A DNA stretch of 64,000 nt from a virus (lineage: Duplodnaviria; Heunggongvirae; Uroviricota; Caudoviricetes): IMG/VR virus record IMGVR_UViG_2518285548_000002, positions 1-64,000 of that record. One strand, given 5' to 3'. How positions within the stretch are numbered: the stretch's first letter is position 1; every line of letters starts with the position of its first letter. Under the pieces are notes generated by a model. The model ran no database searches. It had not been told where the DNA came from and worked only from the letters and a program-made list of their open reading frames with translations. The translations under genes were made by a program, and so were the position numbers. Below are positions 2,296-58,975 of the stretch, piece after piece.

Positions 2296-2296
2296 A

Positions 2297-22187: not shown

Positions 22188-22953
22188 TATCCTTTAGGTG
22201 GTTGTACAGGCGATGTAATATGGTCACGGCTTCAGCCCTGGTGACCTGATCGGCGGCTTCAAATTCTCCATTATATGTTGTCATGATACCGTGCTGTTGA
22301 AGGGATGCCACTTTCGGGGCAACAACTTCCGTGTAATCGTCAAAGATTTTCATAGTACCATTGTCTAAGTAGTCAATTACGAAAGGGAATACAGTGTTGG
22401 TCATATCGACTCCATACATGTATCTGTTGTCATCGTAGTTATCGGAGACTACGATCTTGAAGTCTTGCATCTTGGAGACTCTCTTATACGCTTCGTCTAA
22501 AGAAATTGGACTGTAAACTTCAGGCAGAAGGTTCACGACCCCCATTCTTGTAAGTTCTTTATCAGGATCGAACACCTTACCTTCCTTTGTATAGTAAGAG
22601 AAGTTCCCAGTATCCATCATTGGTGCCATGTCGTAGATCGCAGTGTACGCCCAGTAATTCTTCGGGACATCAATGAATTTGTCCACAACTAGCTCCTGTG
22701 ATCTGTACTTGTCAAATAGCTTGTGAGTCATCGAGATAAACTCGGCTTTGGTGACTTTCTCATCAGGCTTGAATGTCCCGTCCGAGTATCCCGTGACTAC
22801 TCCTTTCTCGGTCATGAAGCTGATGGAACTGATCGCCCACGAGTGTTGGGTCTCACTCACATCTTTGAAATTGGAGGTCTGTGCGCTTGCGGCAGTGGAG
22901 CCGATAAGCAGTGATGAAGCTAGTGTTATCGCTAGTACAATCCTCTTCTTCAT
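22156..22953 (-). CDS. secreted SLH-domain protein
   Basis: Signal peptide MKKRIVLAITLASSLLIGSTAASA; SLH motifs (..GYSDGTFKPDEKVTKAEF.., ..ADQVTRAEAVTIL..). Confidence 0.7.
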   Translation of the reverse strand: MKKRIVLAITLASSLLIGSTAASAQTSNFKDVSETQHSWAISSISFMTEKGVVTGYSDGTFKPDEKVTKAEFISMTHKLFDKYRSQELVVDKFIDVPKNYWAYTAIYDMAPMMDTGNFSYYTKEGKVFDPDKELTRMGVVNLLPEVYSPISLDEAYKRVSKMQDFKIVVSDNYDDNRYMYGVDMTNTVFPFVIDYLDNGTMKIFDDYTEVVAPKVASLQQHGIMTTYNGEFEAADQVTRAEAVTILHRLYNHLKDNGELSKYSSK

Positions 22954-23237: not shown

Positions 23238-24524
23238 ATGGACGAAATTTTAACTTCCACAACATTGGGGGAACTGATAAAGAAGAAAAGAGAGGATTTA
23301 GGTATTAGTTTGTCTGAGGTTTCCAGAAAAACTGGCATTAGCAAGGGAGGGATTTCCAAGATTGAAAATGGTGAAACAAAAGGACCAGAGCTGGCTACTT
23401 TAAAGCCAATTGCCGATGTTTTAGAAATCCCTTATGAGGAAATAATTGAATATTGCATCAGGGCAGAATATCGTTATGATGTCTACGATGATCTCTTGGA
23501 AGAAGCCATAGAAATTGCTAACCCTTCTTTGATTGATAAAGTGGCAATCAAATTCCTAGAAAATATTAAGCATGAAACAGATTCAGCGCTGGAGCATTTG
23601 GAACGATTTGCAGATTCCAGCACAAACAACGATACAAAGGTAACGCTCTATAACACAATTGTGAAGTACTCTAGACAGCATGGGCTACCACATTACATAG
23701 CTAAAGGGTTATATCAAAAATACTTAATTGAGAGACAAAATTTAAAACGTTTGGAAGAATCCTTTAGAGATGGTGAAGAAATCACTCACTATGTTGATTT
23801 TTTATCTGATAATGAAAAGATAACATATTACTTTAAAATGGCTTTACATGCTCATAATACTAAAAAATATAATGAGTGTATCGAGTATTGTGAAGCAGGT
23901 CTTAGACTAGATGTTTCAAGCAACGAGTTGAAGGCTAGAGCTTATTTATCTATGATAAATTCCTATGGTTTCCTGAAAAATTACGATATGGCAGAGTACC
24001 ATCTGGACTTTTTAGAAAAATACGGATTTGAGTTCGTTTCCGATTCATGTAAAATTACTAGAGCTATTATACAAGGGAAAAGGAAACATTTCAGTATAGC
24101 TATTCCAGCACTAAGAAAATGCTATGAAGTGGTACAAAGTGACTTGAAGATACATGTAATCAATGAATTATTAGATTTGTATCTTCAGGAGAGTGATTCT
24201 ACTTCGATTGAAGAAATTTTTAACCTTGAGCCAGAATTTCTACCTCAAAATCCAACAACTCCTTATAAAAAAATAGCTATCGGTAAATACTTCCAGTATA
24301 AAGGGAATTATTTGACCAAAAATTGCATATTTAATGAAGGAGCAAGATCATATTTACTAAGCTTAAAGACATTTGGAGCTGTTTATGCAATTCAAGAACT
24401 TGCAGAATGCATGACCGAATTTTTAGCTTTGTTTACAGCAAATTCTAAATCAATGGATTTGGAATATGTTGTAAGACTAAAAGAGGTGTATACTGATATT
24501 GCAAACAAAAAGGAGGGGTTATAA
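23238..24524 (+). CDS. RNPP-family regulator (N-terminal XRE HTH + TPR-like helical repeats; AimR/NprR/PlcR-like)
   Basis: HTH LGISLSEVSRKTGISKGGISKIENGET; long helical C-terminal region; coupled downstream peptide gene. Confidence 0.7.
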   Translation: MDEILTSTTLGELIKKKREDLGISLSEVSRKTGISKGGISKIENGETKGPELATLKPIADVLEIPYEEIIEYCIRAEYRYDVYDDLLEEAIEIANPSLIDKVAIKFLENIKHETDSALEHLERFADSSTNNDTKVTLYNTIVKYSRQHGLPHYIAKGLYQKYLIERQNLKRLEESFRDGEEITHYVDFLSDNEKITYYFKMALHAHNTKKYNECIEYCEAGLRLDVSSNELKARAYLSMINSYGFLKNYDMAEYHLDFLEKYGFEFVSDSCKITRAIIQGKRKHFSIAIPALRKCYEVVQSDLKIHVINELLDLYLQESDSTSIEEIFNLEPEFLPQNPTTPYKKIAIGKYFQYKGNYLTKNCIFNEGARSYLLSLKTFGAVYAIQELAECMTEFLALFTANSKSMDLEYVVRLKEVYTDIANKKEGL

Positions 24525-24525
24525 T

Positions 24526-24669
24526 TGAGAAAAGCATATGGAATGTTGATGTTGTCGTTAGCCTTAGTGATGACTCTAGGCATTACAGCAAATACTGAAA
24601 CTGCAAGTGCTAAAGAATTAAATTCTCCGCAAAAAGCTCAATCTTATTTTGTTGATCCTGGTCATTAAT
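24526..24669 (+). CDS. secreted signalling pro-peptide candidate (47 aa, TTG start)
   Basis: AAGGAGGGG RBS; signal-peptide-like MLMLSLALVMTLGITA; starts 2 nt after regulator stop. Confidence 0.5.
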
Positions 24670-25249: not shown

Positions 25250-25810
25250 ATGAGAAAAAAACTAAAGATTGCAATTGTTACTACTTTATCATGTGTATCT
25301 CTTTTTTCTGCTGTAGCATATGCTGATTACGGCAAGAAATATCTGTTTACGGGAGGGTTACGGGCTTCAGATGTTAAGAAAATCAAGTATGTAATAGCTG
25401 GCGGAAGTTCTTCCTATCAAAGAAATGTAATGAAAGCTGGAGTTGAGGCTTGGAACGGAATTTCATCAAAGGTTAAGCTAACTGAGGGTAACTCTGGTGC
25501 AAAAGTGAGTGTGATACTCACAAATGCTGATAATGATGATTTATATGGGATTATGATGCCATTTAGCAATGGAGCTAGAGATTATGATCTAGATGAAATT
25601 TGGGACAACATAGATGTTATTGGATATGACAATACTCTATCGAGAATTGGGCTTAGCGAACAAAGGGGCGTATTTACTCACGAGATGGGACATGCATTGA
25701 GTTTAGCACATAATAACTCAGACTCAGATTTGATTATGCACCCATATGCATTAAGTACAGATATTCAGACAGATGATGAGAAAAATCTGAAGTTGAAGTG
25801 GGGGAAATAG
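25250..25810 (+). CDS. secreted zinc metalloprotease (HExxHxxxxxH, matrixin/snapalysin-like)
   Basis: Signal peptide; THEMGHALSLAHNN. Confidence 0.7.
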   Translation: MRKKLKIAIVTTLSCVSLFSAVAYADYGKKYLFTGGLRASDVKKIKYVIAGGSSSYQRNVMKAGVEAWNGISSKVKLTEGNSGAKVSVILTNADNDDLYGIMMPFSNGARDYDLDEIWDNIDVIGYDNTLSRIGLSEQRGVFTHEMGHALSLAHNNSDSDLIMHPYALSTDIQTDDEKNLKLKWGK

Positions 25811-30664: not shown

Positions 30665-31525
30665 TTATTTGCCAGCCGTAGGTAATGCAGGGAGTTGTGT
30701 GATCGTATTACCACCCATTACCTGAGGGTACTTACCATCCCAACGCTTAGCCATTTCGTAGTCGATTAAATGTTGAGTGATAGACTGTTGGAGCTTAGCG
30801 TTCGCCTGAGCTGTACCTTGAGCTTCCGCAATCTTGGCTTCGGCGTTACCTTGAGCTTCCACCAACTGCTTTTCAGCAGTTACTTCAGCTTGAGCCTTTT
30901 CGATCTTCAACTGCTCAAGCTTGAGCTGTGAGTCAACTAAGGACTGAATAGCCTTGAGAGATTCACCGTCAGGCTCAATTTTACTGAAGTTAAAGGTTTC
31001 GATCACGATTCCAACAGAGTCAAGGTCTTTCTTAAATGCTTCCATAACCTTTACGTTAATCTCGCCACGTTTATCACCATATACTTCAAGCACACCGTAA
31101 TTTGAAGTTATTGTCTGGATGGTAGCAGAGAGGCGGTCTTTCATGTAGGTCGCTTCAATGTCATCATCAGAGCGACCACGGAACTTGGCAAATAAATGTG
31201 GTATACGTTTCTCATCCATATGGTAAGAATACATTAACTCGGCTGTTACGACTTTGCCATCCTTCGTTGCTATACGGAATGCACTTTCTCCCTTGTAATG
31301 TACGGTTTCAGTGCTAATTGGGTATTCTGTCACTTTTTGAGTAGGATAAACTGTGTGCCAACCAGGTTTCAAGGTTTCTTCCTCTAATCCACCTGAGCGG
31401 TCGTATACCACACCAACATACCCAGGGGATATTATGGTTAATGTCAACGCCAGATAGATCAGTACACCAATTATGAGAGTACCTACTAAACTACCACCAA
31501 GGACGAACCAGTTACGATTACTCAT
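30665..31525 (-). CDS. SPFH/band-7 (prohibitin/stomatin-like) membrane protein
   Basis: N-terminal TM helix then SPFH-like domain and coiled-coil. Confidence 0.75.
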   Translation of the reverse strand: MSNRNWFVLGGSLVGTLIIGVLIYLALTLTIISPGYVGVVYDRSGGLEEETLKPGWHTVYPTQKVTEYPISTETVHYKGESAFRIATKDGKVVTAELMYSYHMDEKRIPHLFAKFRGRSDDDIEATYMKDRLSATIQTITSNYGVLEVYGDKRGEINVKVMEAFKKDLDSVGIVIETFNFSKIEPDGESLKAIQSLVDSQLKLEQLKIEKAQAEVTAEKQLVEAQGNAEAKIAEAQGTAQANAKLQQSITQHLIDYEMAKRWDGKYPQVMGGNTITQLPALPTAGK

Positions 31526-45528: not shown

Positions 45529-48500
45529 ATGAGGACGGTGATTATTTTGGGTGAGACTCAAGGACAAAAACACTCTTTAACAACCGAGATTCTTATGGAC
45601 TTCGGTCAGTCCGTATCTGAGACTGGAAAGTTCGCGGGTGAGGTTACTAAACTGGGGGCTTCATTCAATGTCCTCTCGGACGCTGTTCATAAAGTAGCTA
45701 ACGATTCTGAGCGTATGAACCTTGCTATTGGCGACAAGATTGCTAGAGCTGTTGCTGAAATCAAAGATGGTTCTAACATAAAGCTCAATGCAAATTCGAT
45801 TAAGAGTGCGGTAGAGTCTGCTATTGCATCTAAGCTTATACACGGTAAGGTCAATATCGAAGGAGACCTGTCACCGCTTAGCGTAAACCTTACGCAAAAG
45901 AAGTGGAGTAGTATGACTTCTGAGGTAAGAGCTAAAATGAAAGAAGCCATTGAAGCGTCTTCGATTAAGGTAGGAAATGTTAAACCTTTCGTCTTCTCGG
46001 AGTACGGATTCCGTGAGCTTCAAGAGAGATTCAATAAGGAGCTTCAGAGCGCAATCTCTACACGTATGTCCTTCGCTTGGGGTAGTGTAACTAAGGAGAT
46101 GAAGGACGGTACGATGGCTAGGGTTCCTAAGCCTATGAAGTTTGAGGTGAAGGAAGAAGACCTGAAGCATCTTATGAACACTGTATCCAATGAGTTCATG
46201 AAGCATATTAGTGACCCTAAGAACATTGTAGTCGGAAACATTCAGCCAGTACAGTTCGACTCTGCTCGTTTGAACATGGCTGTAGGACGTATCAAGGAAG
46301 CTATTGGTGACATTGACAAGCATTTGCTGAATGTTAACCTGGACGAACTGAAGAAGCTCCCTAACCTTGACAAGAGCATGATGAACTTCCGTACTGCGAT
46401 GGAGACCACTGTAGCACAGATCACTCAACTTGACGCTGAGTTGAAAGGTCTTCGCCTTAACGGTCAGGAGAAGGAATTGGCATCCGTGCTTAGCAAAATT
46501 CAAGGTCTTAGAACGACAATCGTGGATAAAGTTGGTTTACTTATCACAAGTGTGGGCGAGGAGATCAAGAAAGTCCCACTAGGTACTAAAGAGTACGCGA
46601 ACTACAAGGCTACTCTTGACAATGTTGGTCATATAGTAGACAGGCACATCCAAGCTGAGATCAATGGTATGGTTACGGGTTTGGCGGCTCGACTTGGAAT
46701 TGACCCTGCAACAGGAGCATCCACAAAGGGCGCAGGTGAGAACAATAAGTGGATTGCCAGTATCAAGGGGGTGCAAGAGCTTCTTATTACTTCTGCTGAA
46801 AGTGCGGTTAAGAACCTTGCACATGCTGACTTAGGAATCGACTTCAACCTGATTATCAACCACTTCCGTGAATGGTCTTCTCAGATGAGAGCTAAGATGC
46901 TTCTTGACTCCCAACATTCCTTAGAGAAACTGACAGCACAGCTAACTGCAAGCAACAAGGAGGTTCTTGACTCTTTTTCTCAAGCCATTACTAGGGTTGC
47001 TAAGTTCCAATTTGAACCGACTGCTGTAGGTAACGTGATGGTAAACCTTCCAGTAGATCAGCTACGTCCTCGTGTTCTTGCTGAGATAGAGAAAGTAGTA
47101 AAAGAGATGGTTCAGGGATTCAAGGCAGTCCCTCACGGGGCGGCAGGAACAGTAGATACTGTTACCTTGCCTGAGAGTACTACTTCCTCTATCAATACTG
47201 CGTTAAAAGGTATTCTGATGGCTCAATCCGAGCAGTTGTTGGCTCAGCTTCGTGCGGGAGAAGGTGTAAAACCATCTGCTTCTGATCTTGCTCAACTTGA
47301 TGCAGTAATGGCACAGGAGTCCAAAGAGCTGATTAAGTTGATCGTTGACCAAGCATCCAAGAATGCTCGAACCCTTGCTGAAGGAATCAGTGCAAACGGG
47401 TTCCAATCCTTTACGAAGGACGACCAAGCACGAATTAAAAAAGAGATGGAGATGACACTTCAGAAGACCGTTACTGAGTTTACGAAGGCAGTAGATTCTG
47501 CTTTTGGGGCTTTCACTATGACTGTCGCTACAGCTCAGTCCATGCACAGTAAGTTGAGTGAGGAACTGAACCGTAAGATTGCTACGAGCAATATCACGTT
47601 CCTCGATGCTAAGGAGCCTTTGGTTCTTACGGGAGCTGTCACAACCATTCAGAAGAAACTACATGAAGCTGTATTGTCCAATATCGCGGCATGGAAGCCT
47701 GACTCTATTCCCTTACATATCGCTACTGATGCTCCTGCTACAGCTATGCGTAATGCCATTCAATCCATGCTGAACATGGCTTCGAGCAAGGTTGTTGAAG
47801 GTGTGGGAGGTATTGCTGATGGTGCTAATGCGATCTTTCTGAACCCTAAGAAACTCCATAAAGATGTTAGACGTGCACTGGCTACAGCGGAAGGGTTTGA
47901 TAAAGTAGCTGACTGGGAGAAGGCTTTCAAGGCGGGTGTGTCTCTTGAGAAGGCTACTGGTCAGATCATGGAAGAAGGGGTACGTACTGTACTTAACAAG
48001 TTCCATAACGCAATTGCGAAGAATACTTCCTCAGCAATTTCTGCATACAGCGAAGCTTTGGGGAAAGTAGACGTTCAACCTGATCTTACTAGCGTTCATG
48101 TCCTTGTAAGACGTGTTGGGGAGATGATGGACAATGTTCAGTTCCGTATGGTCGAGGTACTTACCAAGAACTTGGAATCCTTCTACAAAGGTGCTATAGA
48201 CGGAATTAAGAATTTGCCACACATCACATCGAGTATTGGGTACCGTCCACCTGCGGGAGGTTCTTTGGAATTGACCTCTCAGCCATTCCCATTTGGAGAG
48301 CCGAGAGCGAACCTTCCTGTAGACACACGTTACCCTACAGCAGACAAGCCACCTAAAGGGTACTCAGAGTTCGACATGATGAATCGTTGGGAAAGGGAAG
48401 CACGAATTAGGGTTCTTAACACCAAGAACAGATTCGAGAAAAGCAACCTTTCCGAAGATCAAAGAAGTCGTTTGCATGACTTTCTTGACAACGACTACAT

Positions 48501-51500
48501 GGTGCGGGTGCAGGAAGCTGTAAGTAGATTCCAGCAAGGTCATAGAGTAGGGGATATGTCTCCTTATCAAACCTTGCGTGAATCCATCCTTGATGCGTCT
48601 TTGTCACTGAGATACATGGTTGAGCAGTTCAGGAAGATTAACTTGGGTGCAACGACTCAATCCAATGTAGCGGAGATGAAGAACAAGCTGACTGAGTACC
48701 GAGGCAGTTCTGCTATCAAGATGGAGTCTCTAAGAACCAAATTTATCGGAAAGCTCAATTCTGAGCAAATGGGGGACTTGGAAGATCATCTTAGTAGCTT
48801 AAAACGTAGGGTAGACTCTCTTGCCAATGCTGACATTATTAACGAGGAAGACATCACAAAAGCTCAGAAGGCTATGAGACAGCTCAACCGCGAGATTGAC
48901 TTGGTTGCAAAGGGATATGACCGAATCCTGAAGGTAAGTGGTATTGAGCGTGAAATCGACAAGCTTAGCGAGAAGATGAACCGTTTGATGGCGGGAAGTC
49001 TGTTGCCAGTTAATAAGATGGCTCGACTTGGTGACCTCATTAACGATTCATACGCTGATCATTCGAAGTTCAAAGACGCGAAAGAGTACTACGCTGACCT
49101 TGTTCGGGAAAGCAGACAGCTTAATGCTAATCAACGCCATGAGAAGTCCCTTCAAGTATCGAAGAACGCTCTTAACAGAGACCTCGAAACGCTTAGAATG
49201 GACAGCCTCGTTGACGAAGGGCAGTTGAGCCGCTTAGCTGAACTCATTGATCGGGCTATTGACCCTCAGGACATTGCTGAAGCCCGTGCTTTCAAATCTG
49301 AGCTTATGGCGATCAACCGTGAGCTAAAGAAGCAAGAGGAGATCAGACGTAAGCGCGGCGAGAAGATTGCAGAGTCTCCGATGTTGAAGGGTGATAAGGT
49401 AGTATTTACTGAGCAGTTGAACTCTGTTCTGAAGACTGTAGATGCCCTCAAAGGGTATGAAATTACTCAGATGAATGTTAATAATGCTACCAATACCTGG
49501 ACGGTTAAACTAAGGGATGCTGAGGGTAATCTCAGAACTCTTACTGGTTCAATCGACAAAGCTACTGGTGAGCTGTTCAAGCACAGTGAAGCATTGCAGA
49601 TGGTTACTCAGAACGCCATGAGAGCTTCCAGTTCCATCGGTTCAACAATCGGTAGGACGGGTGATATCCTCGGAAACTACGTGAGCAATCCTGTCCAGGA
49701 TAAACGTCAGAATGGCGGCGGGATTAGGGGTGGATTTGGTACATCAGTAGTCAATACCATGCGGTACATCACAGCGGGTGCGCTTATGGGGTACCCTACA
49801 ATGCTTCTGCACGAATCCTTCCAGTCTGCTAAGGAGTTTGACTATCAGCTTGCGAAGGCTAGGCAGAATTTCGAGGTTAAGTACCTGGAACCAGTTGGAG
49901 GTAACTACGAAATTACTGATTCCAACGGGGAGAAGGTTACAGCTCCACGAGTTCTTCCTAACATGTCCCGTCTTGGTGAGGTGTTAGTCGATGGGGCTAT
50001 GAAAGAGTTGGAAGATCGCAACGGTGGTAAGCTGACAAAACAGAAGAGAGATGATGAAGTTGCTCTCGCTACAACCGAAGTAAAGGAGTACATGAAAACA
50101 GGGGTTGTAAAAGACCTTCAGATGATTGCCCTCCTAAACGGTCTTGATCAACAGGAGGTGGGTCTTGCTTACCACATCGCTTCCCGTAGGTACGATAACC
50201 CTTACGAAGCTACTGCTTTTGCAAGGGAAGTCGCTAAGGTACGTTCGATTGAGGAAGTTGACGTTGAGAAAACGGCTACGGGCTTTGAAGCCATCTCCTC
50301 GCAGTGGGGTATTAACGGTTATACTCTCCAAAAAGTCTCTAACATGATGATTATGGCGGCTAACATATCTCAAGCGAAGATCGAAGACCTTATTGCTACT
50401 CAACAAAAGGCAGGTTCCCTGTTCCGTAATGCCATGGGTAATAGGAGCAAAGAAGACGCATTGGCACACTCCATTGCCTTCTCGTCCATGTTCGTTCAAG
50501 CGACTGCCCGCTCTGGTACGGAGGGTGGTACGTTCTGGAAAGCTATCATTGAAAAGCCTTATACCAAACAGGGTCGAGATGAGCTTGTGAAAATGGCATC
50601 TATGAATCCTGAGCTGTTCGGAGACCTTAATCCATACAATAAGGACGGCTCCGCTAGGGACTTTGTAGACATCTTCGGAAGTATCCTTGAAACGAGCATG
50701 AAGATGACAGATAAAGACCGTATCGAGATGTGGAAGCCGCTGTTCCCTCAATGGCACACGGGTAGTGCGGCGGCTGTATCTGCATTCACTCAAGACCTTC
50801 AACATACCATGGAGAAGGTAATGCACGTCACAAAAGACGACAAGTTTGATGCCAACAAGGATGGGGAACTAAGCATTAAGGAATCCATAAATGCTTACGT
50901 TGAGAGCATCAAGAATGCAGATGAAGATACCTCCACGTACATCCGTGCAGGAATGATGGATACATGGAAGTTCCGTCAAAGCCAAGTCAAAACAGCATGG
51001 CAAATCTCCACATATGACGCTTGGGAGGAACTAAAAGGGGAGTTCTCTAACCTTGCAACTTACCTTACTTCTTTCTTGCGTATGATCGGTGAAAATGCGG
51101 GAGGTATTGTAGACACCATGGGTCTAATCGCTCGTATTATGGCGGGCGTAGGGGTTAAGATCGCATGGGGCAAGTTCAGTGATGCGGTGGACAATGCAGA
51201 TAAGAAGAAACACGCGAAGAAAATTGAGAGCTACGGTAATGCCATTAATGAGAACGCTCGAATGGAAAATCTTAGACGCATTGGTATCCAAGAAGAGATC
51301 GCTCACCATCAGAACCGTGCGAACGCTAGAAACTCTTACAGAGCTGAGGTTAACACAAAGATCGTGGGTAAGGAGGGAGAAATTCACGGACTGAAAGCCA
51401 AACGCGACGAACACCAATCTCTCTATGAGAAGGCTATTAAGAAAGGTGATACAACAGCCGCTTCTTTCCACTCTGTAGAGCGAGACCATGCGGAAAGTAC

Positions 51501-53742
51501 AGCCAAAGCTAAGGGTAAAGAGATTGAACAGCTTCGTAAGGAGCTTCAACAATTGGACCAGCAGGACGGAAAGACGAGACGTAGTCTTGAAGCCCTGGAC
51601 GCTGAACTTGGTGACAATGGTAGGGCGATGGCTCAACTTCAAAATCGTGCTAGGGCACTGACATTGGCAATGGACGACATGGGAATCGACTCGACACAGC
51701 TGAAGAGTAACCTGAACTTCTTGAACCGTGAGTTCCAAACTGGCACCATAGATGCTTCTCGATATGATGCCGAGATCAAGAAGATCGGTAAGGAAGCAGG
51801 AATGTCGGACGGCGACATCTCGAAGTTGAAGCGAGAAGTTGATAAGCTCAACAAATCCTTCAAGGAAGGTGCCATGGATGCCACAAAATATGTCAGCAAG
51901 ATGAAGGAGCTTGAACGTGCCCACCTTACAGGTTCCCTGGGTGTCCCTGGTGGCGGTGTTGCGAATGTGGGAAGTGCAGGTCACAGCGGTGTCGGTCTCA
52001 TGGATATGGCTATGATGGGTCTCCTAGCCAAGGATTTGATTGGCGGCGGTAAGCGTGGTGTGTTCGGTAAGGTTAAGGACGTGTTCCAAACCAAGAGCCT
52101 GGGTTCACTGTTCAGCAAGAACACGCCTATGCGTGGAGTTAACGGCGAAATACTCCGCGACCTGGATGGCAAGGTCATCAAAGAGCGGGCTGTTAACGCT
52201 GAACGTGCCGCAAGAGCAGGGGCGGCAGGTGCAGGGGAAGCAGGGGCGGCGGCAAGAGCAGGTAAAGGTCTTCTCGGTGGAATCACCAAGGCAGGTAAGA
52301 CTGTAGGGAAGTTTGGCAAGTTGCTACGACCACTGAAGGCGATTCCGTACCTCGGAACAGCACTTGCGGGGGCAGATGCACTAATGGCTCTTATTGACCC
52401 TCTTACTGCAATGGGAATGACCGACCATGAGAAGAAGGCAATCAGGTCAGAGAACAAGAAGGAGCTTGCTAAGGACTTCAAGGATTGGGAGGAGTCCTCT
52501 GGCTTAGGTGCTTGGTGGAAAGGTGCCAACCTTGCATGGGACGGTGTATTTAGTGGAATCGGAGCCGCGCTCGGTGGTAATAACTCTTCGTGGAGTGACT
52601 ACTGGAAAGGGTTCAAGGCAGTAGGTGATGGTGACGGAAAGTACGTAGAGGAAACTCTCAAGAAAGAGTACAACTACGAACAGGAAGCCCTCGATGCTAA
52701 GGTAGAAGCCCAAATGGAGATTAACAAGAAGTTGGAGGAACAAAACAAGTACCATCCACTTGATACCAACAAGGATGGATTACTTGACCCTGCAACTGAC
52801 GGTGCAAACCAAACGATAACATACGAAAGCCTCGATGCGCTTCTTCAGAAAATCAACGGAGAGCTTGCCAAGAGTGTAGGTAACAACGAGACTGACTACC
52901 AAGTAACACGTTCCCGACTTCTTATCAGCGGGGTTCGTGAGGACTCTAAGCAGATGCGTGACCTGATGGAAAACTACCTCAGGGAAAACATCAAGTTCTT
53001 CGACAAAGCCATCAATAAACTCCAAGAGACTTACGATATGATGGCAGATGGTGTAGAAAAGGACAAGGTTGGTGCGGAGCTGAACGATAAGAAGCAACAG
53101 AAAGCCCAATCCGAGCTTCAGTTGACAGGGGTCAAGAATAGTAAGATTGACGAACTTCAACGTAGGATGACTGACCAACTTGACCTTACTCAAATGGGGT
53201 ACGACAAGAGGATGTACGAACTTCTGGCTAGTAACGGCGGGAAGGAAGACGCTCCTGAGGTTGTAAAGCTGAACAAGGAACGTATATCAGCAGTTAATGA
53301 GAAACTTGCGGGTTTCCAAGGTGAGTGGGACGTTCTTCTCAAGACTGGTGGGTTTAAACCTAACTCTGATGAGTACATGACCATTTGGAAGAATCTTCAG
53401 TCCATTGGCGTGGAACAGGCTAAGAACCTAGCTGAGATGAATAAGAAGATGAGCAAGCCACAGTCTACCTTCAACGTTCCGAGTGGTCTCAAGGTAATGG
53501 ACTACTACGATTACATGACTAAGAATAATACTCACAAGAGTACTATAGTCGGTGCAGGTAACGTCACTGTGAATGTGAACATCGACAACATGACAGGCGA
53601 CACCAAGGATGTTGAGAAGATGACTTCTGCGCTTGAGAATACCCTCAAGAAAAACAACAGCAACCAGTACCTTGTGAACCAGTTCGCGGGCAACGTAAAG
53701 GCGAACATGGGTAGTAACTACAAAGGAATCAAAGGAGGCTAA
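45529..53742 (+). CDS. tape measure protein (2737 aa)
   Basis: Very long coiled-coil-rich ORF in tail module. Confidence 0.75.
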   Translation: MRTVIILGETQGQKHSLTTEILMDFGQSVSETGKFAGEVTKLGASFNVLSDAVHKVANDSERMNLAIGDKIARAVAEIKDGSNIKLNANSIKSAVESAIASKLIHGKVNIEGDLSPLSVNLTQKKWSSMTSEVRAKMKEAIEASSIKVGNVKPFVFSEYGFRELQERFNKELQSAISTRMSFAWGSVTKEMKDGTMARVPKPMKFEVKEEDLKHLMNTVSNEFMKHISDPKNIVVGNIQPVQFDSARLNMAVGRIKEAIGDIDKHLLNVNLDELKKLPNLDKSMMNFRTAMETTVAQITQLDAELKGLRLNGQEKELASVLSKIQGLRTTIVDKVGLLITSVGEEIKKVPLGTKEYANYKATLDNVGHIVDRHIQAEINGMVTGLAARLGIDPATGASTKGAGENNKWIASIKGVQELLITSAESAVKNLAHADLGIDFNLIINHFREWSSQMRAKMLLDSQHSLEKLTAQLTASNKEVLDSFSQAITRVAKFQFEPTAVGNVMVNLPVDQLRPRVLAEIEKVVKEMVQGFKAVPHGAAGTVDTVTLPESTTSSINTALKGILMAQSEQLLAQLRAGEGVKPSASDLAQLDAVMAQESKELIKLIVDQASKNARTLAEGISANGFQSFTKDDQARIKKEMEMTLQKTVTEFTKAVDSAFGAFTMTVATAQSMHSKLSEELNRKIATSNITFLDAKEPLVLTGAVTTIQKKLHEAVLSNIAAWKPDSIPLHIATDAPATAMRNAIQSMLNMASSKVVEGVGGIADGANAIFLNPKKLHKDVRRALATAEGFDKVADWEKAFKAGVSLEKATGQIMEEGVRTVLNKFHNAIAKNTSSAISAYSEALGKVDVQPDLTSVHVLVRRVGEMMDNVQFRMVEVLTKNLESFYKGAIDGIKNLPHITSSIGYRPPAGGSLELTSQPFPFGEPRANLPVDTRYPTADKPPKGYSEFDMMNRWEREARIRVLNTKNRFEKSNLSEDQRSRLHDFLDNDYMVRVQEAVSRFQQGHRVGDMSPYQTLRESILDASLSLRYMVEQFRKINLGATTQSNVAEMKNKLTEYRGSSAIKMESLRTKFIGKLNSEQMGDLEDHLSSLKRRVDSLANADIINEEDITKAQKAMRQLNREIDLVAKGYDRILKVSGIEREIDKLSEKMNRLMAGSLLPVNKMARLGDLINDSYADHSKFKDAKEYYADLVRESRQLNANQRHEKSLQVSKNALNRDLETLRMDSLVDEGQLSRLAELIDRAIDPQDIAEARAFKSELMAINRELKKQEEIRRKRGEKIAESPMLKGDKVVFTEQLNSVLKTVDALKGYEITQMNVNNATNTWTVKLRDAEGNLRTLTGSIDKATGELFKHSEALQMVTQNAMRASSSIGSTIGRTGDILGNYVSNPVQDKRQNGGGIRGGFGTSVVNTMRYITAGALMGYPTMLLHESFQSAKEFDYQLAKARQNFEVKYLEPVGGNYEITDSNGEKVTAPRVLPNMSRLGEVLVDGAMKELEDRNGGKLTKQKRDDEVALATTEVKEYMKTGVVKDLQMIALLNGLDQQEVGLAYHIASRRYDNPYEATAFAREVAKVRSIEEVDVEKTATGFEAISSQWGINGYTLQKVSNMMIMAANISQAKIEDLIATQQKAGSLFRNAMGNRSKEDALAHSIAFSSMFVQATARSGTEGGTFWKAIIEKPYTKQGRDELVKMASMNPELFGDLNPYNKDGSARDFVDIFGSILETSMKMTDKDRIEMWKPLFPQWHTGSAAAVSAFTQDLQHTMEKVMHVTKDDKFDANKDGELSIKESINAYVESIKNADEDTSTYIRAGMMDTWKFRQSQVKTAWQISTYDAWEELKGEFSNLATYLTSFLRMIGENAGGIVDTMGLIARIMAGVGVKIAWGKFSDAVDNADKKKHAKKIESYGNAINENARMENLRRIGIQEEIAHHQNRANARNSYRAEVNTKIVGKEGEIHGLKAKRDEHQSLYEKAIKKGDTTAASFHSVERDHAESTAKAKGKEIEQLRKELQQLDQQDGKTRRSLEALDAELGDNGRAMAQLQNRARALTLAMDDMGIDSTQLKSNLNFLNREFQTGTIDASRYDAEIKKIGKEAGMSDGDISKLKREVDKLNKSFKEGAMDATKYVSKMKELERAHLTGSLGVPGGGVANVGSAGHSGVGLMDMAMMGLLAKDLIGGGKRGVFGKVKDVFQTKSLGSLFSKNTPMRGVNGEILRDLDGKVIKERAVNAERAARAGAAGAGEAGAAARAGKGLLGGITKAGKTVGKFGKLLRPLKAIPYLGTALAGADALMALIDPLTAMGMTDHEKKAIRSENKKELAKDFKDWEESSGLGAWWKGANLAWDGVFSGIGAALGGNNSSWSDYWKGFKAVGDGDGKYVEETLKKEYNYEQEALDAKVEAQMEINKKLEEQNKYHPLDTNKDGLLDPATDGANQTITYESLDALLQKINGELAKSVGNNETDYQVTRSRLLISGVREDSKQMRDLMENYLRENIKFFDKAINKLQETYDMMADGVEKDKVGAELNDKKQQKAQSELQLTGVKNSKIDELQRRMTDQLDLTQMGYDKRMYELLASNGGKEDAPEVVKLNKERISAVNEKLAGFQGEWDVLLKTGGFKPNSDEYMTIWKNLQSIGVEQAKNLAEMNKKMSKPQSTFNVPSGLKVMDYYDYMTKNNTHKSTIVGAGNVTVNVNIDNMTGDTKDVEKMTSALENTLKKNNSNQYLVNQFAGNVKANMGSNYKGIKGG

Positions 53743-53747
53743 AGAAT

Positions 53748-54398
53748 ATGTCCCAACGTGACCCGTTTGGTTCACCCAATGATAAGTACAAGCGTAAACT
53801 GTTCGTTGACACTGGGGCGGGATTCGTGGAGGTAAAGGCTCGTATCATCGAGCCTTACTCCTCCCCATCCCCACAACCGCAGGTTAAGGAAATTAAGATA
53901 ATAAATGCTCCATCACACTTCCATCAGATGGGGGTCTCATCTTATAAAGCCATCCTGAACATGTTATTTAAGGACAAGGAAGCATACCATGACTACGCTA
54001 TGTTCGTAGGTTGGACTCATAAGTACTACGATGAGAAGGGGAACATATATCACGGGGTGGTTGAATCAATTAAGATTGACCCTGTGTTCTATCATCAAAG
54101 AGACCCTAACATAGATCAAAAGGGTTACAAGGTAGAACTTACAATGACCCTGATTAAGAAGGATGGGTATGATGCCAAGAGCGTCATGCAGTACCAGGAT
54201 TTACAGACAACAGAAGGTAAACCTCACTGGGCGAAGGGGGCTGTGGATGAGATGGCAAACCTTGGACTTATCGTAGTCACTGAGCTTGATGGTACACCTA
54301 TTCTATACTTCAGACCAGAGGATTATATCACGAGAGCTGAGTTCGTAACGTTCCTTATGAGAACAAAGAGATTACTAGAGCGAATCATCAGGGAGTAG
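53748..54398 (+). CDS. tail protein with C-terminal SLH-like motif
   Basis: HWAKGAVDEMANLG...DGTPILYFRPEDYITRAEFVTFLMR. Confidence 0.55.
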   Translation: MSQRDPFGSPNDKYKRKLFVDTGAGFVEVKARIIEPYSSPSPQPQVKEIKIINAPSHFHQMGVSSYKAILNMLFKDKEAYHDYAMFVGWTHKYYDEKGNIYHGVVESIKIDPVFYHQRDPNIDQKGYKVELTMTLIKKDGYDAKSVMQYQDLQTTEGKPHWAKGAVDEMANLGLIVVTELDGTPILYFRPEDYITRAEFVTFLMRTKRLLERIIRE

Positions 54399-54447
54399 GG
54401 CGACCTACTCCTTTTTCTGTCTATCCTAAAGTGAGGAGGTGTTTTCA

Positions 54448-55845
54448 TTGCGAAAGTGGGTAGATGTTAACGAAGGTGACTGGTTCTACAACGACATTAT
54501 GGAAGCCACTAACCTATATCTCGAAGACGGGGAACCGCTTGTAGCAGGTATTAATTACAATCAGTTCGCCGAGGGTAAGCCATTCCTTTTTGAGGAGATC
54601 AAAGCTGTCAAAGATCAGAAAGTCTTTAAACTTTCTGTCAAGATCGAGCCTACAGACGGTAATCCTTTGTATGTCTTTATTGACGGTGTTCAGACCATAT
54701 ACAAGATCGCAAAGACTAACACATCAGGTAAAACAGATGTTGAGTTGTTTGTGGGATGCAAGGATGGGCAGATCGTGGCTTTCTGTAGCTACGGAGCACC
54801 ACTACTAGACCCTGATTGGAAACGACCGCCCAAGAGTTGGTTAGGCGATCTTCCAAGAACAGTAATTCCTAAAAACGACCTGTATTTCTACGACCCTTAC
54901 AGCCGAAGCCACCAAGAGTATCTTTATGCTGGAGGGCAACCTCTAAAGAGACTAAGTATTCCAAAAGAGGTTTGGGCAAACACAATGGGTGATGTATCAA
55001 AGGTAACTGAAATTGCAACTAAAGCAATCGGGTACCGAACGGATGTTTACTGTGTAAGCCCAGGAGGTTCATTATTTCTACCATTTAACCTGAACGGGGT
55101 TACTTGCAAGTTCAATTACTGGATTGTAGAGAATGGTGCTTACAAGTTGATGAGTCAGAATGTAAAGGCGGTATCAACCAACCCTTCATATAATAACCGA
55201 TTCTTTCCTAATGCGGTCATTACAAGAGGAGAAGCCTTCCATCTCATCAACAAACTAAGGAAGATTTTCTATTCTCGCTTCACTGATATAGACGCACCTA
55301 CCAATGGAGTTAAGCAGACGGTAATAGCGTACCAAGGTCAGCGTGTAATCCGTATCAACGGAAACTACCCTGCGGGGGCGAAGAACCTGATAGTTAAGCT
55401 AAATGGGTCGAAGCGTGAGGTTGACAAGCACTACAAGGAGATTGATAACCACACTATCGTATTTAACTCCCCATTATTAGATGGGGATAAGGTGTATGTG
55501 GAATACGTTAAGGGTGAGAGCGAACGGTTTGAGGACATCGGAAGACCTTCAGCGTTCTACTATCAAAATAAGAATGAGAGGGTAGATCAAGCCGCTAATG
55601 TTTGGTGGAAGGTGTCCGTATCGGAGATGGAGGATGAGACCTTCTCAAATGGAGACCACCTCATCGAGGGTATACCTATTAAGAAGACCCTAAGTGGAGC
55701 GGCAGTGGTTACCAACATGGGAAGACCTGTTGGTGGAATTCAAACACCCGAAACGTGGTTCTTAGGAGACTCCGCAATGACCCGTGCGGAAGCTGTTACG
55801 TTCCTTAACAGATTTATAAAGTGGACTATCGAGAGATTTAAATAA
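54448..55845 (+). CDS. tail protein with C-terminal SLH-like motif
   Basis: TWFLGDSAMTRAEAVTFLNRF; TTG start 9 nt after GGAGG. Confidence 0.5.
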   Translation: MRKWVDVNEGDWFYNDIMEATNLYLEDGEPLVAGINYNQFAEGKPFLFEEIKAVKDQKVFKLSVKIEPTDGNPLYVFIDGVQTIYKIAKTNTSGKTDVELFVGCKDGQIVAFCSYGAPLLDPDWKRPPKSWLGDLPRTVIPKNDLYFYDPYSRSHQEYLYAGGQPLKRLSIPKEVWANTMGDVSKVTEIATKAIGYRTDVYCVSPGGSLFLPFNLNGVTCKFNYWIVENGAYKLMSQNVKAVSTNPSYNNRFFPNAVITRGEAFHLINKLRKIFYSRFTDIDAPTNGVKQTVIAYQGQRVIRINGNYPAGAKNLIVKLNGSKREVDKHYKEIDNHTIVFNSPLLDGDKVYVEYVKGESERFEDIGRPSAFYYQNKNERVDQAANVWWKVSVSEMEDETFSNGDHLIEGIPIKKTLSGAAVVTNMGRPVGGIQTPETWFLGDSAMTRAEAVTFLNRFIKWTIERFK

Positions 55846-55858
55846 GGGGGAGAGCAGT

Positions 55859-58800
55859 ATGATTCCAATTTCAGAGGAGGTTTTAAAAGTCCTATCTCAA
55901 CGCTTGAAACTAGGGGAGAGGTCTCTCCCTAATGTAAGGGTGGAGGTGGACAGGCTTGCCTTCATCCCAGGTCGTACTGAGGAGTTCAGGAACATTATTA
56001 ACGACCCTAAACAGGTTACGCAGGTTAAGAAGGTTTGGATTACTGAGTCCACTGACGGGGTTTACGATGGGTCTACTTCTGCGAACGGGCAAGACATCTG
56101 CTTCCCAGTACAAGGTAAAACAATAGACACCATCACGATTACAGATGAGTTCGGAGCGAGCCGTGATGGCGGCAAGAGTCACAGAGGTATTGACCTATGG
56201 GACGATATGGGGAAACCAATCTTAGCGGCGTGGGAAGGTAAGGTAGTAAATATTACTCGTAATAGAACAGAAGGTGCAGGGTACTCTGTAACCATTAAAC
56301 ATGCGGGCGGTGTTATGACAAAATACATGCACCTTAGTGAGATCAATTGCTCCTTGGATGAAATTGTTACCCAAGGTCAGATGATTGGTAAGTTAGGGAA
56401 TACGGGAAATGTTTATACTAACGGGCACAAAGTATCTGAAGCTGAACGTGCTGAGGGTAAAGGTCGTCACCTTCACTTTGAAATCTGGGATGGCGTAAAC
56501 CAGGACTCCAAAACAGGTGAGGGAGGGAAGGCGGTTAATCCGAAAGCATACCTTACGGGACAGAGAAAGATGTACGGTGATACTGTGTCAACTGGAAACG
56601 TAGTGGACGAGGGTTTTGTAACAGGGTTTCCAGGAGAGGTAAAGCTAAGCGAGAACTTCGATAAGAGAAACTGGTACGAGAATGGAGTGTATAGGCTAGG
56701 ATTTAACTTCCATCAAGTTGGTTCGATTCAAACAGGTTGGACTCTATTTGATTCAGGTGGAAAACTGGTATACACCTTTGGACAAAGTTCCACTACTGTT
56801 GAGTTCGAGATTGATGTCTCAAAGATGAGTATGCCTACTGAAGGACTTCTTAGTATTGGGCTAGGTACGAACTTCACGAGTTCAACGGACGGGGATTCGT
56901 TTACAGTCCTTATTGATGGCAAGGCTTTCGCAAATGTCACCGAATTCACTGGTGCCTACGACCTCTCAAAGCTAACAGAGCTGAAGAACATTGTAGTACC
57001 TGCTAATTCCAAGATCATAAAGATTAAAGTCGTTTATGGGGGGAAAATGCAGGAGTTCTATAAAGGGTTCCCTGAGCCTAAGAAGTTAGCGATTGACTAC
57101 ATCCGTATTCAAGAGTTGCTTCCCGCACCTCCGACAAACGATAAATCGGAAGAAGGTCTCGACCCTTCAAAAGGGTACTGGCATGAATTGGAATATAATA
57201 CTTTCATTAATAACGAAATAACTCAAGTGGACTACTTACAAGTTGGTTCGTTCGTATACATGGATACCCAAGTTCTTCCGAATATCATTAATGTTGAAGT
57301 TGACAATCAGTACGAAGCAGAAGCAATGGAAGCGAGAATTTCAATCTCAAATCCAAGAGGTTATTTCTCCCCTGATTACAACCCTGCTTACTTTCCAGAG
57401 ATGGTCGGAATCACCTCACCGTGGTCGTACTTCGTCAACGGTTTCCATATCGGGGTGCTTAGCGAGAACACACCAATCAGAATTTACATGGGTTACGGAC
57501 TGCACCTAATGAGGGTATTCACTGGACTCATTGATAAGGTGGATATGACAGGTGAGGGTTCAATATTGGACATCTCTGCTAGAGACATGTACAAGAAAAT
57601 AATCGAGAAAGTAATTAGCGAGAAGAAGGCTTACCCTGACGTAGGGCATGTAGACAATGTTCCCGACCCTGTTCCTCCATCAGGAGGTGGAGGTCGTCTG
57701 AACGAGATCATCTTAGCGGCTCAGACTCAAGCGGCGGCTTACGGAGTTCCCGATCACAAGTTTCTACTTGCTATCTGTAAGCATGAGACAGCCCTTGGTA
57801 CGGCGGGCATGGGTACAGAAGCTAATGGTAGCTTCGTCTTGGGATACGGGTGTGTTAGAGATGGATACTGCCATCCTCAATATAAAGGTGTACAAGAGCA
57901 GATGAAGCGCGGAGCCGAGCGTATGTCGAAAGCATTAGCATCCCGTGGTAAGAAGGTAGCAACTAAGGCAGATGTGTTGTACTTCCATGGTGGCGGCGAC
58001 ATTGCTCCGATGGTTTGGTCAGGAGACCGAGATAACTGGGTTAATAGAGTTTGGACTTATTATCAGGAGATGCTAGCTAACCCAAGCAACTGGGAGAGAA
58101 CTGCTTCGACTCCTTCTGCACCACCTGCCGCTAAACAACCTATGGACTTAGAGAAACCTGCATGGGTAAAGTCTACGGTCATCCTTGATCTTGTAAAACA
58201 TGCAGGTATGGTCGGGTGGCGGGCAACAAGCGAAGACTTAGCCTACCCTGACTATGTAATTGACGAGACATACCTTATCGAAGTAAATCAGAAGACTGGT
58301 AGGGTTATTGTCCCTGTCCCTGGTCAAGAAGGAGAGTTTGAAGTCAAGGTTGCAAGCACTATCCTTACACCTAACGGATGGAAGAATCCTTTTGTAGAGG
58401 AATATGGAAGGACGTTTGAAAAGTATTCTACAAAGGTAGCTGAAGCCCTCTCTGAAGTCATAGGTGATCTCGCTTATAGGAGCTATTGCGACAGGTACGG
58501 AACCTACAGGTTTGAGCGAATTAACTACAATAAGCCAGTTGTTGCAGAGTTCACAGAGCATGAGAACCTAATCTCTATCAATAAATCCCTTGACTGGTCT
58601 CGGGGAAGAAGTCACGTAGCAGTCATCGACTCGGACGGAAACCACGGAAACTTCATTGATAAGGAGATTCTGCTTGAGTTGAAGGGGGAGATCAGAACGA
58701 TGGTCGCTCCTGTGGCATGGGCTAAGACTATTGAAGCAAAGAAGGCTGTTGCAGAAAAGGCATTCTTCGATATGAAGCGATTGTGCCGAACTCTTCAAGT

Positions 58801-58975
58801 TTCCATCCCTGCTAACCCTGCTCTGGAATTGTTGGACAACGTGCTCATCTCGGATAAAACCACCACAACACGTTCCGTCTACACTATTAAGGGAATCAGA
58901 ACTAGCTTCTCTATTGATAGTGGAATGATTCAAGTTATTGACCTCATGTGGTCTCAGAAAGGAGCAATAGTCTAA
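55859..58975 (+). CDS. tail-associated lysin with M23 peptidase domain
   Basis: HRGIDLW...HLHFE M23 motifs; possible glycosidase-like region AICKHETALG. Confidence 0.7.
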   Translation: MIPISEEVLKVLSQRLKLGERSLPNVRVEVDRLAFIPGRTEEFRNIINDPKQVTQVKKVWITESTDGVYDGSTSANGQDICFPVQGKTIDTITITDEFGASRDGGKSHRGIDLWDDMGKPILAAWEGKVVNITRNRTEGAGYSVTIKHAGGVMTKYMHLSEINCSLDEIVTQGQMIGKLGNTGNVYTNGHKVSEAERAEGKGRHLHFEIWDGVNQDSKTGEGGKAVNPKAYLTGQRKMYGDTVSTGNVVDEGFVTGFPGEVKLSENFDKRNWYENGVYRLGFNFHQVGSIQTGWTLFDSGGKLVYTFGQSSTTVEFEIDVSKMSMPTEGLLSIGLGTNFTSSTDGDSFTVLIDGKAFANVTEFTGAYDLSKLTELKNIVVPANSKIIKIKVVYGGKMQEFYKGFPEPKKLAIDYIRIQELLPAPPTNDKSEEGLDPSKGYWHELEYNTFINNEITQVDYLQVGSFVYMDTQVLPNIINVEVDNQYEAEAMEARISISNPRGYFSPDYNPAYFPEMVGITSPWSYFVNGFHIGVLSENTPIRIYMGYGLHLMRVFTGLIDKVDMTGEGSILDISARDMYKKIIEKVISEKKAYPDVGHVDNVPDPVPPSGGGGRLNEIILAAQTQAAAYGVPDHKFLLAICKHETALGTAGMGTEANGSFVLGYGCVRDGYCHPQYKGVQEQMKRGAERMSKALASRGKKVATKADVLYFHGGGDIAPMVWSGDRDNWVNRVWTYYQEMLANPSNWERTASTPSAPPAAKQPMDLEKPAWVKSTVILDLVKHAGMVGWRATSEDLAYPDYVIDETYLIEVNQKTGRVIVPVPGQEGEFEVKVASTILTPNGWKNPFVEEYGRTFEKYSTKVAEALSEVIGDLAYRSYCDRYGTYRFERINYNKPVVAEFTEHENLISINKSLDWSRGRSHVAVIDSDGNHGNFIDKEILLELKGEIRTMVAPVAWAKTIEAKKAVAEKAFFDMKRLCRTLQVSIPANPALELLDNVLISDKTTTTRSVYTIKGIRTSFSIDSGMIQVIDLMWSQKGAIV

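Follow-up and report, generated by a model that had tools for sequence, protein, structure and literature searches.

It has been reported that S-layer homology (SLH) domains bind non-covalently to SCWP (secondary cell-wall polysaccharide) that has been pyruvylated by CsaB (PMC5817068; PMC6801904). The functional SLH unit is a spindle of three motifs, which come either from one chain, in cis, as a pseudotrimer or from a homotrimer whose subunits have one motif each; a homotrimer of this kind, similar to the Sap/SpaA pseudotrimer, has been documented for SlpA, and Trp, Gly and TRAE-type motifs were listed as SCWP-binding determinants (PMC12285257). Phage lysins with a single SLH motif were first reported in 2025 (PMC12285257), and their SLH domains bind cells (PMC12285257; bioRxiv 10.64898/2026.09.23.753664). 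On the side of the tail, distal tail (Dit) proteins with carbohydrate-binding modules (CBMs), named evoDit, are described for siphophages of Gram-positive hosts in the study of Deep-Purple as having a role in adsorption (PMC9128512). Here we analyzed two adjacent tail genes, gpA and gpB, in a stretch of 64,000 nucleotides (positions 1 to 64,000 of the IMG/VR virus record IMGVR_UViG_2518285548_000002, hereafter the window). One SLH motif was found in gpA and two SLH-like motifs, interrupted by insertions, in gpB; these motifs are probably what links gpA to gpB, and they may also keep the tip of the tail attached to the wall of the host cell.

Compared with these systems, gpA resembles evoDit in its Dit fold and position, being a predicted ring protein with an added module of a wall-glycan-binding type. 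It differs from evoDit in that the added part is a single C-terminal SLH motif and not an inserted CBM, and in that this motif is incomplete alone and seems to need the motifs of gpB. With the canonical SLH domains (Bacillus anthracis Sap, 3PYW/6BT4; Paenibacillus alvei SpaA, 6CWC; the SlpA homotrimers), gpA and gpB share the W / G / TRAE residues and bundled helix-loop-helix motifs. Canonical units contain three motifs, and Sap is matched by sequence by another protein of the window, a secreted one of 265 aa, and by fold by gpB. Unlike canonical SLH proteins, gpA and gpB are virion proteins made in the cytoplasm without a signal peptide, their motifs are distributed 1 + 2 over two polypeptides, and gpB has insertions of 25-210 aa. 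The lysin LysBT1 of a Brevibacillus thermoruber prophage and the binding-domain (CBD) probes of Paenibacillus thiaminolyticus are like gpA in having a phage-derived single SLH motif from the same host families, and they bind cell surfaces (PMC12285257; bioRxiv 10.64898/2026.09.23.753664). However, these are enzymes of lysis, which work from inside the cell or are applied externally, and not tail parts, and binding from outside required removal of the S-layer (bioRxiv 10.64898/2026.09.23.753664). Proteins of contractile injection systems and myophage baseplates that combine a tube fold with LysM (9gtp_P, 7aeb_M and 9g8s_T of phiCD508) and the "ripcord" proteins (Pa193 gp38/39, pyocin PA0626) are analogs of gpA, not members of the same class; the LysM systems have LysM instead of SLH, belong to contractile tails and keep the small domain unsplit, and no LysM match was found in gpA.

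The SLH motif and tube-like domain of gpA

We read the window as a large siphophage or prophage of Brevibacillus laterosporus that is Jenst-like and has a tail tube of the SPbeta type. Records of this species contain 100% identical copies of gpA, gpB and the 265-aa protein, for example on a 160-kb scaffold of GCA_000374385.1, and the identical gpA is named "S-layer homology domain-containing protein" by NCBI. The gene order in the window is tape measure protein (TMP), gpA, gpB and an M23 peptidase protein. gpA, whose start follows a ribosome-binding site (AAAGGAGG) by 9 nt, is thus marked by the TMP position as the first gene 3' of TMP, and the M23 protein is the third conserved member of a gene trio.

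45529-53742, + strand: TMP, 2737 aa (syntenic genes are annotated as tape measure in Jenst and in Bacillus toyonensis plasmid pBtP18)
53748-54398, + strand: gpA, 216 aa, Dit-like protein with one C-terminal SLH motif (open reading frame; Pfam; phrog_32188, E 1.4e-39)
53775-54167, + strand: gpA N-terminal domain (aa ~10-140), tail-tube/Dit fold in the predicted structure
54219-54374, + strand: gpA SLH motif (aa 158-209), HWAKGAVDEMANLGL...YFRPEDYITRAEFVTFLMRTKRL (Pfam, hhalign)
55859-58975, + strand: tail-associated lysin-like protein, 1038 aa (Peptidase_M23 at aa 107-214, 74.8 bits with Pfam; PHROG tail and peptidase families)

Against the Pfam SLH model (PF00395, gathering threshold 20.8 bits), gpA gave a single motif at aa 158-199 with 26.2 bits (E 8e-6), and its homologs in Jenst and B. 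toyonensis gave 29.7 and 24.7 bits, respectively. The first motif of the canonical family with three SLH motifs was aligned to the gpA motif by hhalign with a probability of 94.3%. The hallmark residues W161 (conserved in most homologs), G173 and T195-R196-A197-E198 are all present in gpA, and across 45 aligned sequences G173, P190 and R196 were invariant and Y187 and T195 at least 90% conserved. When a profile of the 45 gpA homologs was searched against 1.84 billion representative proteins, about 19,900 matches were obtained. Among these, about 30 clusters (E <= 1e-30) share the whole gpA architecture, and below the full-length relatives nearly all of the 150 matches listed were multi-SLH proteins, matched via profile positions ~134-197.

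The N-terminal β domain (aa ~10-140) was well predicted in the AlphaFold model of gpA and has the tube-like fold common to solved Dit proteins. The gene also stands where a Dit gene is expected, directly after TMP and upstream of the tail lysin, with gpB as an extra gene between gpA and the M23 protein. Judged by this modeled fold and by its position, gpA is the distal tail protein of the phage. Its tube-fold domain would form the ring that ends the tail tube, with the single SLH motif appended at the C-terminus. The C-terminal helix-loop-helix was poorly predicted (predicted local distance difference test, pLDDT, 52-71), and low confidence in a monomer model would be expected if the motif needs partners. 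Sequence searches of gpA and gpB against Protein Data Bank (PDB) chains gave nothing useful. We also considered an ancestor complete in cis, with two or three SLH motifs in the longer gpA relatives, and rejected it, because the extra length of these 293-344-aa forms is an inserted domain and the SLH motif is still exactly one.

Interrupted motifs of gpB and conservation of the gene unit

The gpB reading frame is open from a GTG at 54439 (468 aa). The real start is the TTG at 54448, 8 nt after the ribosome-binding site GAGGAGG, which gives 465 aa as in NCBI; residue numbers used here are those of the 468-aa frame.

54448-55845, + strand: gpB, 465 aa, tail-tip protein (phrog_29574, E 2.7e-33)
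54454-54552, + strand: gpB motif 1, first half (aa 6-38), WVDVNEGDWFYNDIMEATNLYLEDGEPLVAG; D9, W15, E22 and A23 invariant, predicted helix 17-24
55195-55281, + strand: gpB motif 1, second half (aa 253-281), NRFFPNAVITRGEAFHLINKLRKIFYSRF; F255, F256, P257, R263 and E265 invariant, predicted helix 263-281
55594-55671, + strand: gpB motif 2, first half (aa 386-411), ANVWWKVSVSEMEDETFSNGDHLIEG; E398, E400, L408 and G411 invariant, predicted helix 389-397
55759-55842, + strand: gpB motif 2, second half (aa 441-468), WFLGDSAMTRAEAVTFLNRFIKWTIERFK; hhalign match to the gpA SLH motif, predicted helix 449-467
54390-54413, + strand: strong hairpin resembling a terminator (10-bp stem, GCGA loop, T-run), located in the 49 nt that separate the gpA stop from the gpB TTG, inside the late operon

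When the gpA and gpB family profiles were compared by hhalign, gpA 158-209 was aligned with gpB 386-462 (probability 95.5%, E 1.5e-8), and the canonical SLH family was aligned with gpB 221-278 at 83%. By this profile evidence the C-terminal motif of gpB is a real SLH homolog. Four conserved blocks were recognized in an alignment of 25 gpB sequences: W-x-D-V-x3-D-W-F-Y...E-A...L-E-D-G at the N-terminus, R-F-F-P-N-x3-T-R-[AG]-E at aa ~253-281, W-W...M-E-D-E...G...L-I-x-G at aa ~386-411, and W-F-x6-T-R-A-E-A-V-x-F-L-N-R-F at the C-terminus. In the AlphaFold2 model of gpB (pLDDT 86.4, predicted template modeling score 0.71), helices lie at aa 17-24, 263-281, 389-397 and 449-467 with β domains between them, and these four helices coincide exactly with the four half-motif blocks. 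Judged from the family alignment, aa 6-38 resembles the W-helix half of an SLH motif. Read in pairs, the blocks are two SLH-like motifs whose inter-helix loops contain insertions of about 210 and 25 residues. The hallmark residues of the two motifs (W15, G31, R263 and E265; W389, G411, R449 and A450) are invariant or nearly so; the arginines of the TRAE-type motifs, R263 and R449, are invariant in the 25 homologs, though the loci of B. pumilus and B. tequilensis have Lys at the position of R449. Motif 2 is contiguous in the short-form relatives inspected (B. toyonensis, B. tequilensis, B. pumilus, and the loci L010, L040, L052 and L055). By structure comparison gpB aligns with about two-thirds of the Sap SLH domain, and one of its insertions matches the β-sandwich N-terminal domain that anchors podovirus fibers and tailspikes to the virion (T7 gp17-N-like). 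We conclude that gpB is a peripheral tail-tip protein with a core of two SLH-like motifs, the loops of which are expanded by β-sandwich insertions.

An earlier note on this DNA had placed SLH-like motifs at the C-termini of two tail proteins. Its coordinates and the strings it quoted, HWAKGAVDEMANLG...DGTPILYFRPEDYITRAEFVTFLMR in gpA and TRAEAVTFLNRF in gpB, match adjacent + strand reading frames at 53748-54398 (216 aa) and 54439-55845 (468 aa). The assignment of both proteins to the tail was borne out by their location directly after TMP, the Dit/tube fold of gpA and the fiber-anchor-like domain of gpB. The Pfam SLH model, named in that note as the check, recognized gpA (26.2 bits) and the 265-aa protein (74.2 bits), and not gpB, which at 13.6 bits was under the 20.8-bit cutoff. 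The C-terminal location held for gpA and, by the hhalign comparison, for gpB, whose best Pfam stretch is nevertheless internal (aa 252-266). The single motif attributed to gpB had to be replaced by two, both interrupted by inserted domains.

Conservation was scanned with one genome per species, and 46 loci were found, mostly in Paenibacillus and Brevibacillus; the remaining ones are from Aneurinibacillus, Priestia, Anaerovirgula, Desulfocucumis, Bacillus chungangensis, B. pumilus and B. tequilensis. In 44 of these 46, gpA is followed by a gpB-like reading frame with the N-terminal block and a C-terminal TRA[EQH] helix; the two are direct neighbors in 43 and are separated by one gene in L038. 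An exception is L054, with a shorter gpB-like frame (295 aa) that has a C-terminal TRAQ helix without the N-terminal block. The SLH motif count was one in gpA plus two in gpB in every genome inspected, and the order TMP, gpA, gpB, M23 was also found in Jenst, in the B. toyonensis plasmid pBtP18 and in a divergent metagenomic phage (L010), with syntenic M23 genes in all three. In the gpB homolog of the latter (L010 8990-13684 region), the first insertion contains SH3_3 (29.2 bits) and the C-terminal SLH motif is contiguous (20.0 bits), and the downstream M23 lysin has in addition SLT and several SH3 domains. Evidently the SLH-like scaffold of gpB tolerates swapping of the inserted domains. The TRAE arginines are nearly always kept, the exceptions being TKAE in motif 2 of the two loci from B. 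pumilus and B. tequilensis and, in motif 1, SKGE in B. pumilus and NKGE in L010. The change of the motif 2 arginine to Lys thus occurs only in the B. subtilis-group loci L051 (B. pumilus GM3FR) and L053 (B. tequilensis), and the B. pumilus gpA has SRAQ; the altered arginine in these prophages may reflect a different ligand or relaxed ligand binding.

A nucleotide megablast of both regions of interest against 50,697 phage records gave no match, and relatives among deposited phages were found at the protein level only, the nearest being the Brevibacillus phages Jenst and SecTim467 and the Bacillus phage EZ-2018a. These have the same three-gene unit after TMP as the window (gp155/gp154/gp153 in Jenst). 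Jenst gp155, which RefSeq names "S-layer homology domain-containing protein", shares 36% identity with gpA; for gp154 and gpB the identity is 28%, and gp153 is an M23 peptidase. In contrast to gpB, gp154 is a short form of 347 aa without the middle β domain, and the TMP of the window is about 1000 aa longer than that of Jenst. Jenst has only 2 nt between the two genes and lacks the hairpin that lies between gpA and gpB; in the window this hairpin could lower the expression of gpB relative to gpA. Electron microscopy showed Jenst and SecTim467 to be siphoviruses, the tails measuring ~286 and 415 nm, respectively, and SLH is not mentioned in the paper describing Jenst (PMC4909266). At ~0.15 nm per residue, a tail of ~410 nm is predicted from the 2737-aa TMP of the window, which can be compared with the 415 nm of SecTim467.

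Two side observations concern these relatives. In GenBank the gpA homolog of Jenst and SecTim467 (KT151955.1 / KT151957.1, 28432-29052) is called "glycoside hydrolase family 18", where RefSeq has "S-layer homology domain-containing protein"; the GenBank name is a mislabel, and nothing found here supports family 18. Many relatives were located on stand-alone replicons of ~115-137 kb deposited as plasmids, such as those of Paenibacillus sp. S-38 (120,923 bp) and P. peoriae (137,220 bp), and in this phage clade persistence as a phage-plasmid may often take the place of integration as a prophage.

A proposed tail-tip joint and wall clamp

The anatomy of the system, that is the SLH homology, the Dit fold and position of gpA, the architecture of gpB and the conservation of the three-gene unit, can be stated with high confidence. 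Since a functional SLH unit has three motifs and the family always has one plus two in adjacent genes, assembly in trans was proposed. We infer this assembly, its stoichiometry, the glycan binding and its timing in the following form. Around the tail tip, the gpA motif would combine in trans with the two gpB motifs to give modules of the SLH type, and these modules would fasten gpB onto the Dit ring. Their W / G / TRAE pocket residues may also bind pyruvylated SCWP once the tip reaches the wall beneath the S-layer, and the bound tip would be held in place while the adjacent M23 tail lysin cuts the peptidoglycan. To this combined model of a joint and a late-stage wall clamp we assign a probability of about 0.5. 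The more specific proposal, in which one gpA motif and two interrupted gpB motifs form a complete three-prong spindle that acts as a mechanical joint and, after the S-layer is breached, as a clamp on pyruvyl-SCWP, is offered as a tentative one only.

Several observations fit this model. The three TRAE helices in the models of gpA and gpB are alike in length (19-20 residues each), which fits complementation in trans, and the coverage of two-thirds of the canonical domain by gpB fits its completion by the gpA motif. Binding to the wall is favored by the conserved pocket hallmarks, by the SH3b insertion in one gpB lineage, by the M23 wall lysin encoded directly downstream, and by the hosts, most of which belong to genera using SLH. 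Anchoring by SLH is used by Paenibacillus, Brevibacillus and the B. cereus group.

Other observations weigh against the model. The case for trans assembly consists of a counting argument and fold evidence. gpB scored only 13.6 bits with the Pfam model, best at an internal stretch; when its insertions were spliced out, one motif gave 16.1 bits, the other none, and both combined 22.1 bits; and a Foldseek search of gpB against PDB recovered the fiber-anchor domain and no SLH structures. The pairing of a Dit hexamer with gpB at 1:1 or 1:2 raises symmetry questions. Adsorption to the S-layer/SCWP layer, suggested for the tail proteins in the earlier note, is weakened as a primary receptor-binding function by the single motif of gpA, which cannot form a three-prong unit alone, and by the points that follow. 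The closest structural analogs of gpA include the tube-fold plus LysM proteins of baseplates, in which LysM, a wall-binding type of domain, is a structural element in contractile systems. The gpA-gpB module is also kept in prophages of B. pumilus and B. tequilensis, which to our knowledge lack SLH/CsaB wall anchoring, and no published statement that B. subtilis-group bacteria lack it was found in the literature searched. Finally, single-SLH phage binding domains labeled Paenibacillus only after the S-layer had been stripped (bioRxiv 10.64898/2026.09.23.753664).

The last three points are also what a purely structural joint would lead one to expect, in which the SLH motifs dock gpB and its cargo onto the Dit ring, no carbohydrate is bound, and larger downstream proteins recognize the host. 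The obligate 1 + 2 split over adjacent genes, conserved through the 46 genome loci, suits such a joint, as do the retention of the module in B. pumilus and B. tequilensis with Lys in place of Arg in motif 2 and the concealment of SLH ligands under the S-layer of intact cells (bioRxiv 10.64898/2026.09.23.753664); moreover, virion proteins of 650, 381 and >1800 aa are encoded further downstream and are available as receptor-binding proteins. However, the ligand-pocket hallmarks (W, G and the TRAE arginine) hardly vary in any of the three motifs, though they are also determinants of the fold, the SH3b wall-binding insertion in one gpB lineage suggests that the protein faces the wall, and the hosts of the loci inspected are Paenibacillus, Brevibacillus and a few further genera of Firmicutes, with SLH anchoring in use in Paenibacillus, Brevibacillus and the B. 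cereus group. A joint without glycan binding is a possible explanation to which we give clearly less weight than to the combined model.

Less probable still, indeed improbable in our view, is that the two proteins form separate homo-oligomers, the gpA motifs self-trimerizing on the hexameric ring into two spindles of the SlpA/OmpM type and gpB forming units of its own, with no complementation between them. Homotrimers of single-SLH proteins have been documented (PMC12285257), two motifs can suffice for interaction with the wall according to the review of Desvaux (PMC5817068), and the 265-aa SLH protein of the window matches PDB entries of single-SLH outer-membrane proteins; yet the constant adjacency of gpA and gpB and their 1 + 2 count would be left unexplained, and the part of a canonical domain that is covered by the pair of motifs in gpB is only about two-thirds. 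That the TRAE helices are not SLH homologs at all, and resemble them by chance, could be argued from the sub-threshold Pfam score of gpB and from a Foldseek list without SLH structures. Against this, gpA passes the Pfam cutoff in three divergent homologs, its profile retrieves thousands of canonical SLH proteins through the SLH segment, and the hhalign probabilities are 94-95%. A six-frame scan of the 64-kb window for TRAE-type motifs gave four sites only (the 265-aa protein, gpA, and two in gpB); taken together with the conservation of the motifs in 45 gpA and 25 gpB homologs and with the profile matches, this indicates that the resemblance is more than chance, which is effectively refuted for gpA and very hard to sustain for the pair.

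Since the gpA family is labeled as SLH-containing by NCBI, the bare observation of the motif is already known at the annotation level. In the literature searched, gpA as Dit, gpB as an SLH-like protein of two motifs with insertions, and the conserved 1 + 2 arrangement were not found, and the only paper containing terms for both SLH and Dit or tail proteins has them in unrelated passages. Phage entry through S-layer-covered Gram-positive envelopes is poorly understood, and the known handles are the S-layer protein itself or modules of the CBM type. If the spindle in trans is true, neither a split SLH domain nor a virion adhesin based on SLH would have a precedent: a Dit protein would use the anchor motif of the host S-layer and so compete for, or dock onto, S-layer attachment sites, and csaB-dependent infection would be predicted for a clade of ~120-kb phages and phage-plasmids of Paenibacillus, Brevibacillus and Bacillus. 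A wall-binding domain split 1 + 2 with large loop insertions would also be a clear case of domain complementation in virion assembly, and from the gpA C-terminus/gpB core, new probes that bind the walls of Paenibacillus and Brevibacillus could be developed. Should the motifs be purely structural, the gain is a modest one in annotation (gpA as Dit, gpB as an SLH-like tail-tip protein).

The secreted SLH protein and other genes of the window

Apart from the tail pair, the window encodes the secreted SLH protein mentioned above, followed by a small membrane protein.

22156-22953, - strand: secreted SLH-only protein, 265 aa (Pfam SLH 74.2 bits in two stretches; N-terminal signal peptide by eye)
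21909-22187, - strand: small membrane protein reading frame that follows the SLH gene directly on its downstream side; listed with 92 aa, it probably starts at the ATG at 22148 and then has 79 aa

The earlier note had reported this separate secreted SLH protein, and it was confirmed as a canonical three-motif domain: a signal peptide is followed by three SLH motifs in cis (VTKAE, LTRMG and VTRAE) and no other domain, and the Sap SLH domain 3PYW was matched with E 1.2e-9. The gene lies inside the phage with phage genes on both sides, in the lysogeny-control region, divergent from an HTH-TPR regulator and with a promoter-like site at 23197-23170. Full-length homologs (45-70% identity) were located among housekeeping genes in the three chromosomal contigs examined, and Jenst, SecTim467 and EZ-2018a, which carry gpA and gpB, have no homolog. 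These two facts indicate that the gene is a host-derived accessory and not a conserved partner of the tail. The small membrane protein gave weak matches to transmembrane Pfam families only and none in PHROG, and it was not found beside the chromosomal homologs in the three contigs.

It was also proposed in that note that the secreted protein and the small membrane protein cause superinfection exclusion, by occupying or altering in lysogens the SCWP sites needed by the tail module. The location of the gene within the phage, its own promoter-like site divergent from the HTH-TPR regulator, and a product that is an SLH domain and nothing else, and would compete for the same class of ligand, are compatible with this. 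However, the full-length homologs are ordinary chromosomal genes with housekeeping neighbors, the gene is not inherited together with the tail module (none in Jenst, SecTim467 or EZ-2018a), the abundant SLH proteins of the host would already occupy the sites, and the membrane-protein partner is not conserved. The proposal thus received no comparative support, and we regard such exclusion as unlikely.

Beside this gene, the region 23238-24668 (+) encodes the 428-aa regulator (HTH_3 and TPR; phrog_32768, 455 bits), directly followed by a 47-aa reading frame with a signal peptide and the tail ...SYFVDPGH. The layout resembles arbitrium (AimR-AimP) or RNPP-type signaling at a lysis-lysogeny switch, with no family confirmation of the pair in Pfam or NCBIfam. 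Just downstream of the pair, a 186-aa secreted zincin-like metalloprotease is encoded at 25250-25810 (+), with HEMGH, a signal peptide and weak Matrixin and Astacin matches; its role may lie in lysogenic conversion or in the processing of a peptide.

From ~33 kb onward, the reading frames of the + strand form the phage structural module, which includes the following genes upstream of TMP (start positions given).

33432, + strand: terminase
36237, + strand: portal
39847, + strand: major head protein
43682, + strand: YomU-type tail tube (major tail) protein (match to PF27173 YomU_Tube; SPbeta family)

A contractile-tail, XkdP-like reading of the module was rejected, since no sheath gene was found among the ten structural-module reading frames scanned, the relatives are siphoviruses and the tube is of the YomU type. 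The left part of the window contains phage-typical NAD-salvage genes and a helicase. The NAD+ salvage pair at 805-3534 (-) consists of a nicotinamide phosphoribosyltransferase (phrog_448, E 1.9e-193) and a ribose-phosphate pyrophosphokinase (phrog_619); such pairs in phages are often discussed as a counter to NAD-depleting defense systems. A 286-aa protein encoded just upstream of the packaging genes, but on the other strand (30665-31525, -), gave a match to phrog_200, a "lipoprotein" family of PHROG (E 2.5e-60); this protein, too, is a candidate for a surface or exclusion factor.

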